Part shown: piece after piece, positions 3,031 to 41,259 of the stretch
Layout: each line of letters starts with the position of its first letter
How positions within the stretch are numbered: position 1 is the first letter of the stretch
Source of the DNA: Minisyncoccia bacterium
GTDB lineage: Bacteria; Patescibacteriota; Minisyncoccia; Phycocordibacterales; Zambryskibacteraceae
Direction: 5' to 3'
Length of the DNA stretch: 41,259 nucleotides
NCBI GenBank assembly: GCA_049304335.1
Contig: JBAQOA010000027.1
Span: 1-41,259, forward strand
Position numbers and translations under genes: made by a program
Notes under the pieces: model-generated
Databases searched by the model: none
Told to the model about the DNA's origin: nothing
What the model saw: the letters and a program-made list of their open reading frames with translations, nothing else

Positions 3031-3669
3031 TTATTTAGCGAATGCGCTGAGTGAGCCTGGCATTACACGGATTTTATCTACAGGGAAAAGTGCCAAGACT
3101 GGTTTCCCGACAATATTTTTGCGAGGTACAGGACCCCAAAGACGCGAGTCGGCCGAAGCTGCGCGGTTGTCTCCCATGGCAAAGTATTGTCCGTCTTTTA
3201 ATGTGTAAGTTAGTGTGTCTGTTTTGTTGAAAACCACAAATGGTTCATCAATCTTTATGCCTTCTGGATGTTCGGTGTTTATTATTGTTGTGCCACCTGC
3301 AGAAAGTTGCACTGTTTCTCCTGGAAGTCCGATAATTCTTTTAATAAAAAATTGTTTTGGGTCTAGTGGGTAATGAAAAATAATCACATCGCCTCTCTTT
3401 GGCTCCTCAAATCTGTATGAAATTTCATCAACAATTAGATATTCGCCGTTTTTAAATGTTGGGTCCATTGAAGAACCGTCAACTAGGTATGGCTGTGCGA
3501 TGAACATTCTAAAAGGAATAATCACAAAGACCACTATTGCTAAGAAGGAGAGGAGGTCTTTAATCCAAGGCTTTTCGTACCATTTTTGAAAGCCGTTTTG
3601 TGCTGATTGAGAGCTAGTTTTAAGAGTATTTTGGTCCATGTTCGCGCCATTGTACTGTGTCTCAAACAT
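3031..3669 (-). CDS. lepB: signal peptidase I
   Basis: N-terminal TM segment, then the boxes GSSMDPT (catalytic Ser), RGDVIIF, FIKRIIGLPGE (Lys) and GDNRAASADSR. An internal Met at 3639 is an alternative start. Confidence 0.9.
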   Translation of the reverse strand: MFETQYNGANMDQNTLKTSSQSAQNGFQKWYEKPWIKDLLSFLAIVVFVIIPFRMFIAQPYLVDGSSMDPTFKNGEYLIVDEISYRFEEPKRGDVIIFHYPLDPKQFFIKRIIGLPGETVQLSAGGTTIINTEHPEGIKIDEPFVVFNKTDTLTYTLKDGQYFAMGDNRAASADSRLWGPVPRKNIVGKPVLALFPVDKIRVMPGSLSAFAK

Positions 3670-3678
3670 AAAGTAAAC

Positions 3679-3838
3679 GCTCGCTTTTGTTTTCGGCGTT
3701 CACGCATAACTTTTCCAGCGAAAAAGTTTGCTGTCTCTCAGTTTGCCAAAGTAAAGAGTCCTTCGTGATTACACTCAGGACAGATTGACTTACCATGCTG
3801 GCAAACTTCCGAGACGAACGACGAAAACAAAAGCTCGC
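3679..3838. repeat. long-range imperfect inverted repeat in the divergent lepB/pth intergenic region
   Basis: The left arm GCTCGCTTTTGTTTTCGGCGTTC (3679-3701) pairs with GAACGACGAAAACAAAAGCTCGC (3816-3838) at about 20 of 23 positions. There are inner complementary segments (AAGTTTGC / GCAAACTT, GTCTC / GAGAC). Confidence 0.5.
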
Positions 3839-6332: not shown

Positions 6333-6401
6333 TACGCGAGTTATTAATGGTTATTTCTATTAATCACCCGTCTTTCGAAGGGCACGGGAATAGTACAAGA
6401 G

Positions 6402-6436
6402 AAATGGCCGACCCGCAAGTGTGGGGTCGGCCATTT
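6402..6436 (-). terminator. intrinsic terminator of ORF 6451..6726
   Basis: AAATGGCCGACCC-GCAAGTGT-GGGGTCGGCCATTT. On the minus strand a T-rich run (TTTCTCTT) follows. Confidence 0.7.
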
Positions 6437-6450
6437 GTTTCTCACAAGAG

Positions 6451-6726
6451 TTAGTGCGGGTTCTTTCGCCTAAACTCCCGCTGGAACTCCACGCGTCTAA
6501 CCGTGGCGACGGAGTCCACATACTTCTTGAACTTCTTGCAGGTGGAATCCGGGACCGCCTCGCCGCGTTCCCACAGCGTGGGGATTGCAGTGAGGCCGAC
6601 TGATGTCGGCTCGACATCGCAGGGCGCCATTGTGCCAGCGGAGTGCTTGTTCTGCACTTCGTCGTACTTGAGCGCGCCAAATGTTATGGCGATGAGGAGA
6701 AACAGTATCAGCGTAACTACGCGCAC
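6451..6726 (-). CDS. small secreted or membrane-anchored protein (GC-rich islet)
   Basis: 91 aa. GTG start with AGGAG 8 nt upstream. N-terminal hydrophobic segment VVTLILFLLIAITFGAL. Two Cys residues. A terminator follows directly. Confidence 0.55.
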   Translation of the reverse strand: MRVVTLILFLLIAITFGALKYDEVQNKHSAGTMAPCDVEPTSVGLTAIPTLWERGEAVPDSTCKKFKKYVDSVATVRRVEFQREFRRKNPH

Positions 6727-6820
6727 GAAAAACTCCTATGTGAAGAGGGAAGGTACAGCAGACAATATTATAACAAATATTCTCGGGAATAGCAAATACG
6801 GAATTTTTATATAAAAGAAG

Positions 6821-6846
6821 AGCCCCTCGCTGCAAAGCGAGGGGCT
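6821..6846 (-). terminator. intrinsic terminator of ORF 6941..7504
   Basis: AGCCCCTCGC-TGCAAA-GCGAGGGGCT, followed on the minus strand by CTTCTTTTATAT. Confidence 0.7.
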
Positions 6847-6940
6847 AGGCTTCTAAGCCTTCTGTGTTTTTCTACCTTACACCGTCTCGACCGGTGTGGT
6901 AGTGAAAATGTTCACAATCCATCCTGTGAGGCCGGGCGGC

Positions 6941-7504
6941 CTAGAGTCGAGAGTAGAACCTCGGCGCGACCGGCGAAATTCCCGCAGCGTTGTCCGTCAT
7001 CGAGAAGACGTCGGAACATCGCAGGTAGAACGCGTTCTCCGTAGGTGTCGCGTTCCGATTCGCAGGGCTGGCCGCCACCTCACGGGGCGGCCGGTCGAGC
7101 GGCATGATGTTGCTGTAGCTTTTCCCCGAAAGGGGCCCCCAGGTCGATGCCGTGGCGTACGTGGTCGACGAGCAGCAAAGGTTGGTCTGCTGCTTGGCGG
7201 GCGGGCCGGTGTCGTAGAACGGCGTGGAGCCGTTCTCGGCGACAGGGGCTTCGACCGTCACGTCCAGCGTGCCGAGCGTGTTCTCAGCCTGGGCGGGCTT
7301 CTTGGCTGCCCAGCTGACGTCAACCGTCGTGGCGCTCGTGAGCGCGAAGCTCACATCGTACGGCGCAGCGAGGGGCGACTTCTGGCTGACCTGCTTGACC
7401 TTCGCTTCGGCCGCGTTGGCCGTGGGCGGTGCCATGGCGCCGGTCATCGCGATGGCGAAAATCGCCACCATGATGGGGTGCATGGTCTTGCGGGGCATCA
7501 TCAT
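6941..7504 (-). CDS. secreted protein (GC-rich islet)
   Basis: 187 aa. GAGAGG Shine-Dalgarno 6 nt upstream. Sec-type signal peptide MHPIMVAIFAIAMTGAMAPPTANA|AE. A beta-rich mature part follows (SFALTSATTVDVSWAA). It was chosen over the overlapping GC-rich frames because of the signal peptide, SD and terminator. Confidence 0.6.
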   Translation of the reverse strand: MMMPRKTMHPIMVAIFAIAMTGAMAPPTANAAEAKVKQVSQKSPLAAPYDVSFALTSATTVDVSWAAKKPAQAENTLGTLDVTVEAPVAENGSTPFYDTGPPAKQQTNLCCSSTTYATASTWGPLSGKSYSNIMPLDRPPREVAASPANRNATPTENAFYLRCSDVFSMTDNAAGISPVAPRFYSRL

Positions 7505-7673
7505 GCGGGCCTCTCGGCTCAGGTGATGGTGTTGGTAAAGTACTATCTGCCCTCAGGCAGGTAGTACCCACCGAGGAAAGGACATTATAGGAAATGGTTT
7601 TTTACTTGTCAATAGTCAGAATTTGTGGTGAAAAAAGTGGCTAAAATAGGCCATATTATGCTATAATAGGAGT

Positions 7674-15590: not shown

Positions 15591-15621
15591 AAAAGGCCTC
15601 GACAATTCGTCGAGGCCTTTT
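15591..15621. terminator. bidirectional intrinsic terminator
   Basis: AAAAGGCCTCGAC-AATTC-GTCGAGGCCTTTT, with an A-tract and a T-tract on either side. It lies between the convergent pilin array and ORF 15631..16305. Confidence 0.75.
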
Positions 15622-15630
15622 CGTTTCATC

Positions 15631-16305
15631 TTACTTCTTGTTGCAATCCGCGCCGTATACGCGGGGCGTCTGAGCCACGATCACGCGCCCATCCTGTGGG
15701 AGCGTGAATCTGAGACTGTCGACAGCGCCGATGTCCGTCGCGTCGCCTCGGGTCAGGACCTTGTACTTCTCGCCGCGGCCCGTTTCCACGGTTGCCGTGT
15801 CGAGCTGCTTCGTCAGGTACGAGACCTTGAAGGAGCACTTGTCCGGATTGAGCCGGAACCAAACGCTCGGCTCTCCTGACTCGAGGTCAGCAGAGCTTAC
15901 CTGCGGCTCCGGAGGACTGTCCTTGGTGGAGGGCGCCAGCGTGGCGCTCTTCTTCGTCGTGTCGGCGCTCATTTGCGATGAGCAGCCGCCGCTCGTCTTG
16001 CAGTTGGGCAGGCCGTACTTCTTGATGCTGTAGCCCACCGCGAACACGAAGAGCATGATGGCAATGACCGCGAGAAGCGTCCGTGCCAACTGCCCGCCGT
16101 GCTGGCTGAACCAGTTGCCGATGCGCTGTCCGACGGACTGCGTGTTCGGCTGGCTGGGCGCCATGGGCGTCCAGAGGAGCGAGAAGAGGAACGACCCGAG
16201 GTCCCATGCGAGCATGAAGGTGAAGAACCACCAGCAGCCGGTTACCGGCCACAGGAGTCCCGTTCCGGCGGTAAGAACCGCGAGGATCAACCAGTAGATA
16301 AGCAT
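15631..16305 (-). CDS. integral membrane protein with a C-terminal soluble domain (GC-rich islet)
   Basis: The ATG at 16305 has GGAG 9 nt upstream. 224 aa with three predicted TM helices, then a Ser/Pro/Thr-rich linker and a beta-rich domain. The 5' extension in the track (to 16404) has no SD. Confidence 0.6.
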   Translation of the reverse strand: MLIYWLILAVLTAGTGLLWPVTGCWWFFTFMLAWDLGSFLFSLLWTPMAPSQPNTQSVGQRIGNWFSQHGGQLARTLLAVIAIMLFVFAVGYSIKKYGLPNCKTSGGCSSQMSADTTKKSATLAPSTKDSPPEPQVSSADLESGEPSVWFRLNPDKCSFKVSYLTKQLDTATVETGRGEKYKVLTRGDATDIGAVDSLRFTLPQDGRVIVAQTPRVYGADCNKK

Positions 16306-16527
16306 TGAGCTTTCTCCGAGGGGTTTTGAAGCGTGATGAAACGATGTGATGTACTTATATCTGGGTACTGATAGAAGTATAGCATACTGGCCACCCATTG
16401 TCAAGCACTAAAATCCAACCCATATGCGTAGGTTTTACTTAGTAATTTTGTATTAATTACAATACATTTTCGTCGTTCGGATTAAATACAAAAGTAAACT
16501 TTTGTGCCGAATCCTCACTTCTCACTG

Positions 16528-24480: not shown

Positions 24481-24539
24481 AGCTTACGCGTCGGTGGTAG
24501 AGCTTGCCCCGCCATGGCGGGGTGAAGTCAATTACAACA
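24481..24539 (+). pseudogene. duplicated 5' half of tRNA-Tyr carrying a 25-nt hairpin insertion
   Basis: AGCTtAcGCGTCGGTGGTAGAG ... TCAATTACAACA repeats 24781-24817 of the intact gene (acceptor 5' strand to anticodon-stem 5' strand). The D-loop TGG is replaced by CTTGCCCCGCCATGGCGGGGTGAAG. Confidence 0.7.
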
Positions 24540-24782
24540 ATGTGGCATGTCTACGTTCTCAAAAGCCTAAAAACCAATAAATATTATATTGGATGTTCAA
24601 ATAATTTACCCAGAAGATTAAGAGAACATAACTCCGGAAAAAATATCTCAACAAAATTTGGAATACCGTGGGCATTAGTCTACGAAGAATTATTTGAGGA
24701 TCAAAAGCAGGCTTTCGATAGAGAAAAAAAGATAAAATCATATAAAGGTGGAAATGCGTTCAAAAAATTGCTAGATTTATAG
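24540..24782 (+). CDS. GIY-YIG nuclease superfamily protein (small stand-alone URI domain)
   Basis: 80 aa from the ATG at 24540. MWHVYVLKS...KYYIGCSNNLPRRLREHN...E...K gives the GIY, YIG, Arg and Glu landmarks. The track's upstream TTG start would read through the tRNA fragment. Confidence 0.8.
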   Translation: MWHVYVLKSLKTNKYYIGCSNNLPRRLREHNSGKNISTKFGIPWALVYEELFEDQKQAFDREKKIKSYKGGNAFKKLLDL

Positions 24783-24787
24783 CTAAT

Positions 24788-24870
24788 GCGTCGGTGGTAG
24801 AGTGGTCAATTACAACAGACTGTAAATCTGTCGCCTTCGGGCTACGAAGGTTCGAATCCTTCCCGGCGCA
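24788..24870 (+). tRNA. tRNA-Tyr(GUA)
   Basis: 83 nt. Acceptor stem GCGTCGG/CCGGCGC, anticodon arm ACAGA-CTGTAAA-TCTGT, long variable arm, T-arm GAAGG-TTCGAAT-CCTTC. Confidence 0.9.
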
Positions 24871-24883
24871 CAAAATAAAATAG

Positions 24884-24899
24884 CTTGGCTTTTGCCAAG
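24884..24899 (+). terminator. small stem-loop after tRNA-Tyr
   Basis: CTTGGC-TTTT-GCCAAG, followed by ACCATTTTATTT. Confidence 0.45.
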
Positions 24900-24919
24900 A
24901 CCATTTTATTTAACGTTGC

Positions 24920-25048
24920 GAAGGGTTCGAACTGTTGGAAGGGGGTCGGGGAAACGAGAGTTTCCCGTGCCGGAACAATTTAAACCGACGGGTTTAAAAG
25001 CGCAGTCCCGCTAGGGCGGGACGAGCAGTGAGATTCCTTCCCGGCGCA
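24920..25048 (+). repeat. tRNA-3'-end-linked GC-rich structured module, copy 1 (next to tRNA-Tyr)
   Basis: GAAGG-GTTCGAAC ... AGTGAGA-TT-CCTTC-CCGGCGCA. The interior blocks are shared with 41133-41259. The 3' 18 nt are identical to the tRNA-Tyr 3' end. Confidence 0.6.
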
Positions 25049-25055
25049 CAAAGAA

Positions 25056-25367
25056 GTGGAACAAATAAGAAATAAATACAATCCAGAGTTATACAATGAA
25101 TATTTGATGCGACTAAGGTCGTTGGTCAATATTAGTGACGAAGATGTTTTTGATGATTTCACCGAAGAGTTGACCCAATTTGCAAAAGAATTGAATGTTA
25201 AATATGGCGAAGATATAAGACGTCTAGCACTTTTTCATGCCTTAATCGGCAGTACTATTGGGCCATATACTGGTATAGAGGGCGATGATTTAGAGGGCAC
25301 TGATTCGATCGCTAAGTTTATTGATGATATGTATGGTAAGTACAAACAATACTTGCCAAAAGAGTAA
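25056..25367 (+). CDS. hypothetical acidic protein
   Basis: 103-aa ORF with host-like AT-rich composition. GTG start with a weak SD; the first ATG is 51 nt downstream. No motif recognised. Confidence 0.4.
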   Translation: MEQIRNKYNPELYNEYLMRLRSLVNISDEDVFDDFTEELTQFAKELNVKYGEDIRRLALFHALIGSTIGPYTGIEGDDLEGTDSIAKFIDDMYGKYKQYLPKE

Positions 25368-25574: not shown

Positions 25575-25739
25575 TTATTTTAAAAGTCTTGTTGCTGGGC
25601 TCTTCAGGGGAGACTGGCGATAAGCGGCATTACGGTTGCTCATCCTCGGAGTACCCGGTCCCTGACGAAAAATGTTTCCAATCGGGCAGTGCCCGAAAAG
25701 TATTGAGAGCCACAGGCGAGGACTGTGGCTCTTTCTTTT
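25575..25739 (+). ncRNA. candidate small RNA (unassigned) in a GC-rich islet
   Basis: About 165 nt without a credible ORF. Pairings include TCAGGG (25604-25609) with CCCTGA (25660-65) and CGGGCA-GT-GCCCG. It ends in the terminator AGAGCCACAG-GCGAGGA-CTGTGGCTCT-TTCTTTT (25706-25739). The 5' end is not defined. Confidence 0.35.
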
Positions 25740-25861
25740 AAATAAATGAAGGAATCGGTCATGCATAATTTTCTGCTGAAAATTTACGTGACCCCGACTC
25801 GCACCGTCGCGCTTCGTCTTTTGGCACTTTACAGCCTCTTCGACACGTCTCGAGTGCTATT

Positions 25862-26809
25862 TTAAATAAATAAATATTCTCCTTTAACCCACCTATTTAA
25901 CACTTCCACGTGCAAATCATTTAGCCATCTTAAATTCTCTTTTTGCCATGTTGATCTCATGACACCAGCAAGGAAAAGTAAGGAATGAAGCTGAACGAAC
26001 TCTCGATCGATCTGTGATAATTTCCCATAACCAATAAAAAATTTTTCAAAAATTTCCATATTCGATGCTTTTACTTTTTGATCAATCATTAACCAGTAGA
26101 CAGTTTGTCCGATATCGGCCATGTCGTGGCCTTTCATGGAATTGTCGAAGTCGAATATACCACTAATCTCAAAATTTTCGTCGACATTAATGTTTGAGAA
26201 ATGGTAGTCCCAGTGAAGTGGGACGAAACGAAAATCTGGATAAGTGTCATAAAGATCTTGTAATCTTTTAAACTTTATTATCAGGAAATTCACTAGCTCC
26301 TTATTTATATTTTCTTGTGCAGCTGCTAAATACTTCTCGATTCGTATTTTTGTCCAATTAACCCATTCTTTTTGTGAAATTACTTCATGCTTTCCATGAG
26401 CCCAAAACGGCTGAATCTTCAAATCGTGAATTCTTTTAAGCGTTATTCCAGAACTAGTGAGGATTTTGTATCTGTTTTCGATAGACGCTGTTTCCCAAGC
26501 TTCAGAAGCTACGTTACCTGGTAAACAATCCATAACAGCCCAACCTCCATCGTCGTCTTTTACTATGTCGTGGATTTTGGGAGATGGCAGGCCATTTTTA
26601 CTTACATAATTTGAAATTCGTGCACTCTTTTCAATCTTTGCTTCAATTTTTTTAGGAAAGAATTTAATAGCTAAAGTTTTGTTTGGGTTATGAATCTCAA
26701 CTTTATACACACTACTAGTCAAACCTTTTGAAAATTTTATCACTGGGCCAATGACAGCATTTGGAAATAGTTTATGAACCGCCATTGAAGTTTTTTCTAA
26801 AAAATTCAT
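25862..26809 (-). CDS. aminoglycoside/choline-kinase-type phosphotransferase (APH family)
   Basis: 315 aa. The catalytic loop HWDYHFSNINVD fits the HxDxxxxN pattern, and the metal-binding segment is GIFDFDNS. Confidence 0.75.
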   Translation of the reverse strand: MNFLEKTSMAVHKLFPNAVIGPVIKFSKGLTSSVYKVEIHNPNKTLAIKFFPKKIEAKIEKSARISNYVSKNGLPSPKIHDIVKDDDGGWAVMDCLPGNVASEAWETASIENRYKILTSSGITLKRIHDLKIQPFWAHGKHEVISQKEWVNWTKIRIEKYLAAAQENINKELVNFLIIKFKRLQDLYDTYPDFRFVPLHWDYHFSNINVDENFEISGIFDFDNSMKGHDMADIGQTVYWLMIDQKVKASNMEIFEKFFIGYGKLSQIDREFVQLHSLLFLAGVMRSTWQKENLRWLNDLHVEVLNRWVKGEYLFI

Positions 26810-26811
26810 TG

Positions 26812-26882
26812 CGGGTGGTGAAGGAATCGAACCCTCGACAGCGGATTTGGAGGCCGCAGTTATACCATTTAACTAACCACCC
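26812..26882 (-). tRNA. tRNA-Trp(CCA)
   Basis: 71 nt. Acceptor stem GGGTGGT/ACCACCC, anticodon arm GCGGC-CTCCAAA-TCCGC, T-arm GAGGG-TTCGATT-CCTTC. Confidence 0.85.
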
Positions 26883-36837: not shown

Positions 36838-37141
36838 GAACAGCACAAAAGACCGACTGGGTAGACTCCGCGGAATTCCATCCGCTCGAGGGGACTCAGT
36901 ACAGAATGAATCTAGGTTGGCAGTGGGCCACAGAGAGCGCTAGCCCGGCTAAACATCAAACGCCGCGCAAACCCTCCACCATTTCCGGGGACAGTCCTTG
37001 GACCCCCGTCAGAGATGCAGAACGCCCAACTATCTCAACCAATTTTCGTGGGAAGTAGATTTTTACTTCCTTTGTGGAGCGTCAAAACTCCCGGTCGAAC
37101 CATCGCGCTCACCCTGATTAAAGGGTGAGCGTTTTGTTTTT
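36838..37141 (+). ncRNA. unassigned structured RNA candidate, unit 1 of the ORF-free GC-rich locus
   Basis: A possible promoter lies upstream: TTGACA at 36803-36808, 16 nt, then TAAAGT. The GC-rich body contains hairpins such as GGAAGTA-GATTTT-TACTTCC. It ends in the terminator CGCTCACCCT-GATTAA-AGGGTGAGCG-TTTTGTTTTT (37106-37141). Confidence 0.4.
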
Positions 37142-37184
37142 CATAAATTTTGTAAATTTGACAATTTTATATATTTTGTGTTTG

Positions 37185-37863
37185 AACTTTTTAGGAGCTT
37201 GACTGTGGATAACTGTTTCTGTAATGTCTCTGCCAGACCGTTCTTAGACAAGTTGATTGGTTCATCTGGCAAAGAACAAACGGCAGATAAACCGCGGGGC
37301 AACCCACGGAAAATCCACCGCAAGTTCGTAGAGCCCGCAAGAGCTCTGCATCTGGTCGCCGTTCACGGCTACACCCAACTGTTACGACTAGCATACGGGT
37401 TAGCTAGTCGAGACATAACAGGCCGCAGTCCTCACGAGGGATTATCGGCAAGGGAAAATCCAAGTTTCGCTATCATGCGTCGGCAAGATAGTTTCGTACG
37501 GACTTCAAAGTCCATACGAACATCCCGCCTATCCACATAGGCGACGATGAAAACAAGGTACCAGAAAAGCAAGAACCAATGAAGACGGCCAGACCTCCAA
37601 AGTCCAGCCGATCCAAGGAAGTAAGCGAGGATGAAATCTCGCTGAAAACCTCGGAGTTGCGGATCGTCAATCCGCTCCTTCACGCACGAAGTTTCCGAAA
37701 GGAAACCCGTTGAACCTCGCTTCGGCAAGGTCCATCGCCTCTCCAGAGAGGTAAGTGCACAGCTTGTCACCCTTCTAGGGCGTATAGGTTCTGATGACCG
37801 AAAGGCCATAAGAATCCTCGCGCCCCCAAACGGGCGTCCTTCTACACGAAGGGCGCCCGTTTT
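37185..37863 (+). ncRNA. unassigned large structured RNA candidate, unit 2
   Basis: About 680 nt without a credible ORF. Tetraloop-capped hairpins include CCGCGGG-GCAA-CCCACGG (37292-37309) and GTTTCC-GAAA-GGAAAC (37691-37706). There are also an 8-bp stem at 37385-37410 and a 12-bp stem at 37493-37520. It ends in the terminator at 37828-37863. The 5' end is uncertain. Confidence 0.35.
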
Positions 37864-37904
37864 CACGTATTAGGTTGAAGTATTTTGTTTTATAAGTACT
37901 ATCC

Positions 37905-38135
37905 ACTGCAGAAAGGATGCACATTCACAGGTATGCAGCGGTCCCTCCCCGTGGCTACGTCCGTAAGGGCGGAAGCTATTTCAGTGATTCTTGGGCGAGA
38001 TTGGACTCTCCAATGACTGTGTTCGTGACAAGTGCTTAGTCGTGTTTGCACTTGTTCTAGTCGCGCTTGCATGCCACGACTGGACATCCGAAGTTTTGGG
38101 CGCGCATCCGTACAGGGTGCGCGCCCAATTTTTTT
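37905..38135 (+). ncRNA. unassigned structured RNA candidate, unit 3
   Basis: A possible promoter lies upstream: TTGAAG at 37875-80, 16 nt, then TACTAT. The body has nested stems such as AGTCGTG...CACGACT. It ends in a strong terminator, TTGGGCGCGCA-(11 nt)-TGCGCGCCCAA-TTTTTTT (38096-38135). Confidence 0.35.
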
Positions 38136-38153
38136 GATATAGTCTTAAACTTA

Positions 38154-39122: not shown

Positions 39123-39221
39123 ACCAACAAAATTACTCTTTACTTTTTATTTTTTATATTGTACTCTTGTAAAAGAAGTAAAAGTACACGCTCCAACCAC
39201 GGCCCCATTTAGGAGGGGACA

Positions 39222-39896
39222 ATGCGCACCACAATGTTGGTTCTCGTGACGGCACTCCTTCTGGGGTGCAGGAAAGACGAGACGCTCGTGAGTCTGTATG
39301 ACTCTGGGCTTCCCACGTCGCCACAGGCGCCCGTTGGTGTCATGCAGGTCTTCATGAATCCGCACGCGGATTCGCTGAAGCTCGGCGACACCACCACTTT
39401 CGTTGCCCGTGCAATCCCTACTCGGGAAAGCGCAGGTTTCAATCGAAAGATCTTCTGGAGGTCGGCCGACACGACCATTGTGTCGCTGACTCAGGTGAGC
39501 GACACAAGCGTCCGCGCTACCGGCAAGAAGGTAGGCAGTGCCCAGATTCGTGGGTACGCCTCTGCCGATTCCAGCAAGTTTGCCACGGCGTCTCTCACGG
39601 TCTATACCGTGGCGCCGTCGCACAGCTCGCCGGTACAGCTGGTGAAGTTCGATGGCGATTCGGTCATCGCCGTCAAGGTGAATGAGAGTAGGCAGATGCC
39701 AGCTCCGCGCTGTGTGATGGTGAACCCAAGCGCGCCATGCGAGCTACTCTGGCGCTCGACCGACACCCTGACGCTTTCGGTGAATGCTACCGGAAGAATC
39801 ACGGGCAAGAAGGTAGGAAATGCGCAGGTGTATGTGCGGGTCAAGGCCGACACTACGTTCGTCGCGGTCTACCCGAAGCCTGTGCAGGTGAAGTAG
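39222..39896 (+). CDS. lipoprotein with two Big_2-like Ig domains (GC-rich islet)
   Basis: AGGAGG lies before the ATG. The lipobox is LLLGC. There are two repeats of the pattern W-R-S-x-D-T...V...ATG-K-K-VG-x-AQ. Confidence 0.7.
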   Translation: MRTTMLVLVTALLLGCRKDETLVSLYDSGLPTSPQAPVGVMQVFMNPHADSLKLGDTTTFVARAIPTRESAGFNRKIFWRSADTTIVSLTQVSDTSVRATGKKVGSAQIRGYASADSSKFATASLTVYTVAPSHSSPVQLVKFDGDSVIAVKVNESRQMPAPRCVMVNPSAPCELLWRSTDTLTLSVNATGRITGKKVGNAQVYVRVKADTTFVAVYPKPVQVK

Positions 39897-39923
39897 AGCG
39901 GAGGAGCGGAGAGGAGCAAAGCA

Positions 39924-39953
39924 GGGGCGCACGACAATTTCGTCGTGCGCCCC
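39924..39953 (+). terminator. intrinsic terminator of the lipoprotein gene
   Basis: GGGGCGCACGAC-AATTTC-GTCGTGCGCCCC followed by ATTTCGTT. Confidence 0.7.
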
Positions 39954-39979
39954 ATTTCGTTATATAATCAGACTCAAAT

Positions 39980-41016: not shown

Positions 41017-41087
41017 TGGGGGATCGTCTAATGGTAGGACAGTAGCCTTTGAAGCTATTAATTTTGGTTCGACTCCAAGTCCCCCAG
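41017..41087 (+). tRNA. tRNA-Gln(UUG)
   Basis: 71 nt. Acceptor stem TGGGGGA/TCCCCCA (U1-A72), anticodon loop CTTTGAA, T-arm TTTGG-TTCGACT-CCAAG. Confidence 0.85.
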
Positions 41088-41132
41088 CTAGTGAAATTTA
41101 AATAACTCCTGTTATGCAAATTTTACTTACGG

Positions 41133-41259
41133 CTTGGAGTCGAACACAGGAGCGGGGGTCGGGGAGACACGGATTGTCTCCCCGTGCAGGAAGGCAGTCC
41201 TGAGCGAAGTGAGGGGCGTTGGAAAACCGTCGGTTTCCAAAGAGTGAGACATCCAAGTC
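41133..41259 (+). repeat. tRNA-3'-end-linked GC-rich structured module, copy 2 (next to tRNA-Gln; truncated by the window end)
   Basis: CTTGG-AGTCGAAC ... AGTGAGA-CAT-CCAAG-TC. The left 13 nt are the exact reverse complement of the tRNA-Gln T-loop plus 3' T-stem. The interior blocks are shared with 24920-25048. Confidence 0.6.

Follow-up and report, generated by a model that had tools for sequence, protein, structure and literature searches.

Structured, protein-less insertions with target-specific antisense segments behind tRNA genes and other gene ends: a candidate family in bacteria of the candidate phyla radiation

Among the mobile elements described so far, two groups come closest to the element considered here: integrative elements that duplicate the 3' end of a tRNA gene, and enzyme-less cassettes with folded attachment sites. 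Integrases targeting the genes of tRNAs and of transfer-messenger RNA (tmRNA), with sublocations at the T-loop and the 3' end, were reportedly covered by Williams in 2002. The element reported here lies directly 3' of a tRNA-Tyr gene in a stretch of 41,259 nucleotides (the whole stretch analyzed, hereafter the window; positions 1 to 41,259 of contig JBAQOA010000027.1, assembly GCA_049304335.1) from a Minisyncoccia bacterium, a member of the Patescibacteria, or candidate phyla radiation (CPR); a second copy stands beside tRNA-Gln. In the well-resolved copies of this module, the 3' end of the target gene, which is conserved and highly expressed, is followed by a spacer, a segment antisense to the last 10-25 nt of the gene (the guide), a core of two or three hairpins separated by unpaired joiners, and a sense copy, or pseudo-copy, of that end. 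The module is most like the two groups named above and lacks what defines each of them. Judging from sequence, its core family looks previously undescribed and appears to comprise structured-RNA-like, protein-less insertions of CPR bacteria.

The likeness to islands in tRNA and tmRNA genes, and to phage 21 and e14 in icd, lies in the repeat of the 3' part of the gene up to its terminus, in a gene that stays functional, and in tandem accretion; the parallel with the icd 3' end extends to a relative of the module at a protein-gene end (locus L029), where the duplicated ends differ synonymously only. Unlike integrase islands, the module has no integrase, can be about 110-250 bp long, and combines a core of covarying hairpins with an antisense segment specific to each target. 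With integron attC cassettes and the Xer-exploiting elements of the CTXphi type, it shares the lack of an enzyme, mobilization presumably occurring in trans, as well as two imperfectly complementary arms with mismatches, which in the module recur and are predicted to enclose branched hairpins, and the formation of arrays. Like attC cassettes, modules come as units without an open reading frame (ORF) and possibly as ORF-bearing units, and their structure is better conserved than their sequence across families. They differ from both systems in having no attI/intI platform, dif site, or R/L box consensus and in arms that copy the individual target gene, and from attC in joiners that are strongly conserved within a family and in a stem base that is a tRNA acceptor end or gene terminus, not GTTRRRY.

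Structured elements that carry a target-complementary segment and use tRNA-type safe sites also include the bridge (seek) RNAs of IS110/IS1111, the omega RNAs of IscB/TnpB, and the homing guides of CRISPR-associated transposons. Unlike bridge and omega RNAs, the module has neither an adjacent recombinase or nuclease gene nor internal target/donor loops nor an Rfam match, and its guide is the strand of a terminal stem, masked by a pseudo-target; an IS110 bridge RNA as such was rejected, there being no adjacent ORF and hairpin loops of 3-5 nt only. The order of guide, core, and target 3' part is that of the group I intron guide and of engineered trans-splicing ribozymes, and in the class I and class II layouts described below the guide likewise pairs across the junction. 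Compared with group I, the core of the module is far smaller and unrelated, the upstream gene is complete, and there is no conserved terminal G; group I and group II introns were both rejected (no Rfam intron match, a core of 70-110 nt, a complete upstream tRNA). A diversity-generating retroelement was rejected as well: the differences in L029 are synonymous third-position changes of all kinds, and no reverse transcriptase is nearby.

Theta ribozymes, which are minimal ribozymes of the hepatitis delta virus (HDV)-like type, adjoin phage tRNAs (PMC10879173), and the module resembles them in being a small structured, putatively RNA, unit directly 3' of tRNA genes. Theta ribozymes have no guide or duplicated tRNA end, the module has no HDV-family Rfam match, and the double-pseudoknot theta fold is impossible for it because hairpin A is a plain hairpin. 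HDV-like/theta and hammerhead folds, threaded by eye, proved incompatible; membership in the known self-cleaving families (hammerhead, HDV/theta, twister, pistol, hatchet, hairpin) was rejected, with no Rfam match at E up to 10 for either copy and with junctions that differ from the CUGAUGA/GAAA core. Eukaryotic Dada DNA transposons are specialized on tRNA and small-RNA genes as safe sites (PMC8869645); they share the use of tRNA genes and differ in having a transposase and terminal inverted repeats and no structured guide module. A design that joins a target mimic to an antisense segment is not described for tRNA-targeting elements, even if the module is read as an att cassette, and a full-text literature search found no description of the module.

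The original prediction, made from the letters of the window, held that a unit of about 180 bp behind tRNA-Tyr ends in an exact 18-nt repeat of the tRNA 3' end, and this is what we find (24857-24874 equals 25035-25052). In the following list of the features of this unit (copy 1), block O denotes the stretch of unbroken identity with the gene at its terminus side, and P1 the closing stem.

24788..24871, + strand: tRNA-Tyr(GTA), the target gene of copy 1 (ARAGORN; Rfam tRNA, 60.3 bits)
24857..24874, + strand: gene-side copy of block O, TCCTTCCCGGCGCACAAA, comprising the T-stem 3' strand, the acceptor 3' strand, and 4 nt beyond; exact 18-nt repeat of 25035-25052
24875..24914, + strand: AT-rich spacer with a bidirectional terminator-like hairpin at 24884-24899 (terminator scan)
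24915..24932, + strand: guide GTTGCGAAGGGTTCGAAC, the 5' strand of P1, antisense to the T-loop, the T-stem 3' strand, and part of the acceptor 3' strand of tRNA-Tyr
24933..24947, + strand: joiner TGTTGGAA and the invariant GGGGGTC, which is the same in 18 of 18 cores
24948..24966, + strand: hairpin A (GGGGAAAC GAGA GTTTCCC), or helix 1; 99.3% of cells paired, changes on both sides in 4 of 8 pairs
24967..24978, + strand: joiner GTGCCGGAA (family consensus GTGCNGGAA) and CAA; invariant columns in the 16-core alignment
24979..24998, + strand: hairpin B (TTTAAACC GACG GGTTTAAA) with a conserved AACC/GGTT top, or helix 2; 97% of cells paired, changes on both sides in 6 of 8 pairs
24999..25022, + strand: AGCGCA and the optional hairpin C (GTCCCGC TAGG GCGGGAC, 25005-25022), the third hairpin of class I
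25023..25034, + strand: right end of the core, GAGCAGTGAGAT, containing GTGAGAT, an imperfect T-loop copy (GTTCGAA with TC changed to GA)
25035..25052, + strand: distal copy of block O, forming the 3' strand of P1 and the tail; adjoins the resident downstream ORF (GTG at 25056)

The complete direct repeat (24854-24874 versus 25032-25052) measures 21 nt at 95% identity, 18 nt of which are exact, and the 160 bp separating its two copies contain no ORF. The inverted T-arm copy that had been predicted is present as well, with 12 of 13 positions matching between GTTCGAATCCTTC (24850-24862) and GAAGGGTTCGAAC (24920-24932). The antisense segment was correctly noticed, but its extent was underestimated: the duplex of the guide with the real tRNA-Tyr runs from the T-stem through the acceptor 3' strand and comprises 22 pairs (-29.5 kcal/mol, compared to -24.9 kcal/mol for the duplex with the downstream sense copy). 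When 24915-25052 is folded as + strand, the inverted-repeat stem, with its GAAGG/CCTTC closure as proposed, encloses three hairpins at -59.4 kcal/mol (z = -3.7), a value that none of 200 shuffles equals; the - strand folds more weakly (-46 kcal/mol, z = -2.4). Opposite the guide, GTGAGAT produces tandem G.A mismatches; a K-turn at this position was rejected, for want of a 3-nt bulge.

The second copy postulated beside tRNA-Gln is real. The sequence GGGGGTCGGGGANAC is present exactly twice in the window versus 0.07 occurrences expected, and the first part of the copy 2 core is matched by the covariance model described below with 38.7 bits (E = 6e-8). Its features are these:

41017..41088, + strand: tRNA-Gln(TTG), the target gene of copy 2 (ARAGORN; Rfam)
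41131..41145, + strand: guide GGCTTGGAGTCGAAC; its 13 final nt match the reverse complement of the tRNA-Gln T-loop and T-stem 3' strand exactly
41146..41251, + strand: core of class II, consisting of ACAGGAGC GGGGGTC, hairpin A, GTGCAGGAA, GGCAG with an insert, hairpin B (41219-41240), and AGAGTGAGACA
41252..41259, + strand: beginning of the tRNA-Gln sense copy (3' part), TCCAAGTC, truncated by the end of the window

The hairpins of the Tyr and Gln copies differ through compensatory changes. According to the original prediction, the closing stem and 3' tail switch to match each host tRNA; the guide indeed changes with the target, and the Gln tail can be followed over 8 nt of repeated tRNA 3' end before both available assemblies stop. 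The second of these, the independently assembled locus L043, matches the Gln copy base for base, diverges (TATTA) past the 8 nt of tRNA-Gln sense copy, and then ends. Both assemblies break off at most 6 nt apart (window 41252-41259; L043 4900-4911), just past the 3' strand of the Gln closing stem, which suggests a repeat or population heterogeneity at this junction. Given that L043 reproduces the Gln copy and that other members of the family were found again in independent datasets, an assembly artefact, against which the prediction had cautioned, is excluded.

Relatives of the core were initially sought with one exact sequence pattern derived from the Tyr and Gln copies. Among 185,579 representative genomes, true relatives came from six, all of them CPR (Saccharibacteria, Jorgensenbacteria, Kaiserbacteria, Paceibacterota, and other Patescibacteria), the remaining 13 genome matches being chance hits within high-GC coding DNA. 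Metagenome contigs yielded 14 true relatives, several of which are repeat occurrences of the same loci; phage and plasmid collections contained no relative of the core, and the single match in viral contigs was due to chance. After removal of duplicates, 18 distinct cores from CPR/Patescibacteria assemblies remained (family 1). One covariance model, R1, built from five length-regularized seeds (loops trimmed, inserts removed), retrieves all 18 with 37-92 bits and detects no other family-1 copy in the window or in the related loci. The further copies that a covariance search was expected to reveal therefore exist, and the hairpins are kept with compensatory changes, as anticipated from two copies: with the real sequences aligned to R1, an alignment that leans towards the model structure, 98.3% of the cells are paired and 10 of 16 pairs are changed on both sides. 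The observed covariation values are matched by none of 500 shuffles, and sliding the partners abolishes the signal. MAFFT misaligned hairpin B between the layout classes.

Invariant parts of the core are GGGGGUC, the GGGG/CCCC base of hairpin A, GUGCNGGAA, and the AACC/GGUU top of hairpin B. Three layouts can be discerned: a minimal three-way junction of about 70 nt that has no hairpin C (L013, L016, L020), class I, represented by the Tyr copy, with the third hairpin after hairpin B, and class II, represented by the Gln copy, with the third hairpin before it. This difference explains the shift in hairpin position relative to the CAGTCC block that had been noticed between the two copies. The core hairpins have terminal loops only, of 3-5 nt, including cUUCGg and GNRA types, and the + strand fold of the core is the more stable one in 15 of 17 cases. 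This strand bias supports a single-stranded + strand species, as the earlier alternative of a transcribed tRNA-linked RNA would have it, and the UUCG/GNRA-type loops point likewise. When the window was scanned with Rfam 15 at gathering thresholds, tRNAs alone passed, and permissive scans of both copies and eight member loci gave no consistent match on the module, in agreement with the earlier view that it is not a recognized RNA family. Nor is it a miniature inverted-repeat transposable element or another insertion sequence, as was also foreseen: the inverted arms differ between copies and equal the local target, and the repeat length ranges from 7 to 78 nt.

Another line of evidence comes from the guides and their targets. 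Over 10-20 nt, guides are the exact reverse complement of a stretch in the host gene end, 39-106 nt further upstream; when wobble pairs are allowed, the pairing grows to 20-25 pairs and reaches from the tRNA T-loop to the acceptor end. Among about 38 tRNAs compared, inverted copies of at least 8 nt occur only at the module-bearing ones. The spacer is 0 to about 55 nt long, varies in sequence between members, and frequently includes a terminator-like hairpin. The targeted tRNAs are Tyr, Gln (twice), Thr-CGU (twice), Thr-UGU, Asp, Lys, Val, and Ala; the target is a tRNA- or tmRNA-like 3' end in L015, the 3' end of fusA (elongation factor G, EF-G, by homology) in L029, and, in a further case, the 3' end of an ORF ending in ..RRAPQWSKR, which we take to be rpsI. 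The targets have no fixed short motif in common beyond the T-loops of tRNAs, unlike the tetra- or pentanucleotide 3' of which IS200/IS605-type hairpin elements (PATE) insert, and the fusA and rpsI-like targets are without the T-loop motif. The apparently tRNA-like parts of the module are copies of whichever gene is targeted, not a tRNA mimic as such. Some of the earlier assignments have to be revised accordingly: TCGAAC, listed as a shared core block, is complementary to the T-loop of whichever tRNA is targeted; AGTGAGA, listed likewise, is a look-alike of the T-loop (GTTCGA to GTGAGA) and varies together with the target; and the inverted T-arm copies, regarded as possible recombinase core sites, instead form an antisense segment specific to the target and different for each host gene.

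In all 15 pairs of gene end and sense copy, identity with the real gene is unbroken over 7-45 nt at the terminus side (block O) and the differences cluster core-proximally. At six different targets, the T-loop look-alike has GTGA in place of GTTC, and at two others TT stands for AA; the look-alike follows the target T-loop (GTGAAAT where the loop is TTCAA). Because these recurrent mismatches sit in the sense copy, the guide:gene duplex is stronger than the guide:sense-copy duplex in most loci. The repeats stop where the gene product does: L007 and L013 have their repeat end at or beside CCA, L026 within the T-tract of the terminator (45 nt, exact), and L016 and L029 immediately after the stop codon. 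The two 78-nt fusA ends of L029 encode the same 25 residues and stop and differ in 11 codons, all synonymously, so that both must have evolved as functional gene ends in different genomes. A first version of a codon-usage test on these ends was neutral (38 versus 46), and a version including tuf favored the gene-side copy as the resident one by 5.2 log units; a search for fusA relatives of L029 came up with none closer than about 82% identity, not near enough to be of use. In a search with the EF-G C-terminus, many CPR matches stood alone as ORFs of 131-222 aa, with exactly 144 aa a very frequent length, and their contigs reached 200 kb; a split or interrupted fusA may be common in these CPR lineages.

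The insertion is polymorphic among relatives, whose syntenic loci were reached via ClpB homologues (82-87% ClpB identity). The comparison of empty sites that the original prediction had proposed gives a clear outcome at L044, where the tRNA-Tyr end adjoins the ATG of a homologue of the window ORF at 25056; the site is also empty in L046, L047, and L065. In L050, the tRNA-Tyr site holds a different, AT-rich core (family 2) in the same layout. In L066, tRNA-Tyr is inverted and a module of yet another type (family 4) follows on the tRNA's own strand, with guide, two hairpins, and sense copy; L048 also has tRNA-Tyr inverted, without a module of the copy 1 core family. The inversion relative to clpB (L048 3033-3116, L066 5329-5416) is a local one at the same hotspot. 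A CCA is found after the gene-side copy of L050 and neither after the distal copy nor in the empty relative, a pattern that fits an exchange inside block O with import of everything after O on the gene side. Tandem or nested copies are present in L042, where two different modules follow a single tRNA-Gln, in L015, which has three copies of the gene end, and in L035. The interval between tRNA-Trp and L33 is variable too: empty in L065, occupied by family-2 modules in L050 and L066, and by a DUF4440 ORF in L044.

We read the unit as a non-autonomous, cassette-like, site-specific insertion element, the target of which would be picked by base pairing and which would be mobilized by a trans-acting enzyme or by the RNA itself; our confidence in this reading is about evenly divided. 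It retains part of the earlier idea of a miniature integrase-less element targeting tRNA genes, in that the insertion is absent from relatives, has no protein gene, and duplicates the tRNA 3' end as in att sites, but the module is no decayed island remnant, given its self-contained covarying core family, and it is not tRNA-specific, as shown by the fusA and rpsI-like ends. The element would pass through a transient circle or single strand in which guide and pseudo-copy pair as stem P1 around the core, and strand exchange with the chromosome would occur inside block O, at the extreme end of the target gene (Campbell-type). An exchange at this place would leave the host gene intact and regenerate the target, and a regenerated target would allow tandem arrays and repeated independent insertions at one site. 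The guide would read the target by base pairing, most likely as a + strand transcript, and the core may serve an unlinked enzyme encoded in trans (a recombinase, nuclease, or reverse transcriptase) as its handle. A role of guide and core as RNA is favored because of the greater stability of the + strand, the cUUCGg/GNRA loops, and targets too diverse for a sequence-reading protein. More tentatively, the modules might be protein-gene-less mobile elements whose structured RNA both selects the target and steers its own insertion, which would fall at the 3' ends of highly transcribed genes; the 5' guide would then be masked by the mismatched pseudo-target, and the RNA would recruit an unlinked enzyme or act as a ribozyme.

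Several observations weigh against an insertion element of this kind. When the ORFs lying up to 4 kb from 17 loci were compared all against all, no protein family was common to at least three loci, and no integrase, recombinase, reverse transcriptase, or nuclease was linked to the modules, so that the mechanism is what we infer. The evidence is confined to DNA sequence, with no circular junction, excision product, or transcript among it. By codon usage, the assignment of the resident copy in L029 is conflicting, and the result that makes the gene-side copy resident fits an exchange at the far 3' end, not at the guide-paired left end. L001 (core at 3650-3790, - strand) and L037 (core at 1540-1700, + strand) have the core without a recognizable duplication of the neighboring gene end. 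L030 (about 300-325) and L035 (about 175-235) have, beyond the distal copy, solo guide-like inverted copies of the tRNA end without a core; the model leaves these unexplained. The four core families are alike in architecture alone, so that a handle for one enzyme may not hold across them, and six pattern matches in 185,579 genomes make any census very incomplete. As side observations on two of these loci, L037 has a terminator directly after hairpin B and a guide-like segment that pairs with sequence 54 nt upstream, and the repeat of L035 spans terminator, spacer, and guide.

Alternatively, no RNA would be involved. The module would then be a folded single-stranded DNA attachment site like integron attC or CTXphi attP(+), with guide and pseudo-copy mimicking a double-stranded target with mismatches, a tyrosine recombinase of the host or encoded in trans swapping one strand, and replication resolving the product. 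Two inverted target-like arms 70-110 nt apart with central mismatches, an element that encodes no enzyme, a regenerated target with tandem arrays, several sequence-unrelated core families sharing one architecture, and a possible cargo ORF upstream of the structured site, as in gene cassettes, are all in keeping with this proposal. We nevertheless consider it unlikely: the targets (at least nine different tRNAs, fusA, and the rpsI-like ORF) are too diverse for a DNA-reading Xer or phage integrase, the stem base has no GTTRRRY/RYYYAAC core-site pair, the unpaired joiners are far better conserved than in attC, and the UUCG/GNRA loops and + strand bias suit RNA better.

Mobility at the RNA level, in which module RNA would join the 3' fragment of the target RNA or switch templates at its 3' end, either as a small ribozyme itself or with the help of a host ligase or reverse transcriptase, and the chimeric RNA would be copied into DNA and recombined in, strikes us as quite doubtful. 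The Rfam models of hammerhead, HDV, twister, pistol, hatchet, and hairpin ribozymes are all silent, the minimal core of about 70 nt is small, no reverse transcriptase is linked, terminators often lie upstream of the guide, in the spacer, and the cargo ORF of about 1 kb in the tRNA-Trp element described below is awkward for an RNA intermediate. Such a scheme would, on the other hand, account for the succession of guide, core, and target 3' part, which mirrors the internal guide, core, and 3' exon of a trans-splicing ribozyme, for duplicated blocks that stop where the target RNA stops (L007, L013, L026, L016, L029), for guides that cover both sides of the junction in class I and II copies, and for the strong single-strand structure.

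Arguably, the module might instead be a cis-acting RNA of the host, an antisense switch in the 3' flank that controls maturation, stability, or termination of translation-related transcripts, the guide pairing either with the 3' end of the upstream gene or with its own decoy copy. The two pairings are mutually exclusive, with the real target the stronger one in most loci, the decoy mismatches are recurrent and look designed, the targets are all translation genes, and the core resembles a three-way-junction aptamer. This is improbable, however, for a module that is sporadic among close relatives, gives way to unrelated cores at the same site, and occurs in tandem copies; the exact repeats exceed the needs of pairing (45 nt including the terminator in L026, 78 nt of coding sequence in L029), and terminators between gene and guide would block co-transcription. 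Deletion remnants of integrase-bearing islands in tRNA genes, the conserved part being the island end, are extremely unlikely even though a direct repeat reaching the tRNA terminus is the classic island signature and one copy may keep a cargo ORF, since 18 independent loci share the compact spacer-guide-core layout without variable island debris, no integrase fragment is nearby, the guide differs with the target, and protein-gene ends are used too.

Should the modules be insertion elements that choose their targets by base pairing, as we favor, they would, if they move, rank among the smallest site-specific mobile elements (about 110-250 bp, gene-less). Their target specificity would be readable and re-writable, one core standing behind at least 10 different guides, a property prized in CRISPR, omega, and bridge RNAs. 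Part of the odd tRNA flanks of CPR genomes (pseudo-tRNA 3' ends, GC-rich islands by tRNAs, contig breaks) would be explained, a possible route of gene-cassette acquisition in very small genomes would emerge, and a new structured-RNA family, probably several, would be added in an RNA-poor part of the tree. If the RNA itself directs insertion, this would amount to a minimal, naturally programmable system of RNA-guided integration in CPR bacteria with several unrelated core families.

Among the other core families, family 2 is AT-rich and consists of a long hairpin around TTTTYGARAAGC-TTTG-CTTTGARAAAA, followed by RTACTG and a small hairpin with a GTAA loop. It is found at tRNA-Tyr and tRNA-Trp of close relatives (L050 5883-5971, + strand; L050 about 6600-6500, - strand; L066 about 6165-6070, - strand), with compensatory changes between copies and the arrangement of guide, two hairpins, and sense copy. 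In L042, the family-1 module at tRNA-Gln is followed in tandem by a core of a third type (about 610-735, + strand), which has its own guide, CTTGGACTCGAA, and its own sense copy, GTCCAAGTCCCGCAAC. The window itself contains a family-4 module, next to a kinase ORF:

25745..25859, - strand: family-4 module with a degenerate guide, ending in CGATTCCTTCA
25862..26809, - strand: APH-family kinase ORF (Pfam APH, 2.4e-21), between tRNA-Trp and the family-4 core

The end of this module, CGATTCCTTCA (25757-25747), is an 11-nt copy of the T-loop and T-stem 3' strand of tRNA-Trp, and window 25835-25757 (- strand) is 86% identical to the family-4 core of L066, where guide, two hairpins, and sense copy are intact. 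The kinase ORF begins 1 nt past the end of tRNA-Trp (26811-26882, - strand) and may be cargo of the element; this single case, with its degenerate guide, suggests that modules can close gene-carrying cassettes.

Upstream of copy 1, window 24489-24782 holds a GIY-YIG ORF within a duplicated 5' part of tRNA-Tyr: the first 15 nt of the tRNA (24489-24503) are followed by a 23-nt GC hairpin at the D-loop position (24504-24526, CCCCGCCATGGCGGGG), by tRNA nt ~19-31 (24527-24539), by the ORF (start probably ATG 24540, 80 aa, catalytic domain alone), and then by the full tRNA. The arrangement is absent from the empty relative L044 and recurs, hairpin included, in L053 and L062, which have no structured module (proteins 61-70% identical); in L039, a GIY-YIG ORF lies between a diverged 5' part of tRNA-Ala and the full tRNA-Ala. 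The arrangement has the appearance of a homing-endonuclease cassette that targets tRNA genes and supplies a substitute for the tRNA part. The nuclease was considered as a partner of the module, as it is located upstream of the module-bearing tRNA in both the window and L039; a link is not supported, as the closest homologues of the nuclease (L053, L062) form a tRNA-Tyr cassette of their own, in which the covariance model detects no core.

The interval from rpmG to the tRNA-Trp element contains some 150 nt of GC-rich non-coding sequence (window 25585-25745), bounded by terminator-like hairpins and conserved in L066 (about 6040-5880, - strand); it has no Rfam match, folds at -59.2 kcal/mol (+ strand, z = -2.5), and may be an unannotated small RNA. 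The window, with a GC content of 41%, further includes GC-rich islands (up to 70% GC) at 6361-7580, 15591-16330, 36841-38140, and 39181-39970. The one ORF checked in the island at 36841-38140 has no Pfam match, and the island at 39181-39970 carries an ORF with a Big_2 domain; the islands at 6361-7580 and 15591-16330, with GC-rich ORFs that have no Pfam match and with terminator-like flanks, look foreign.

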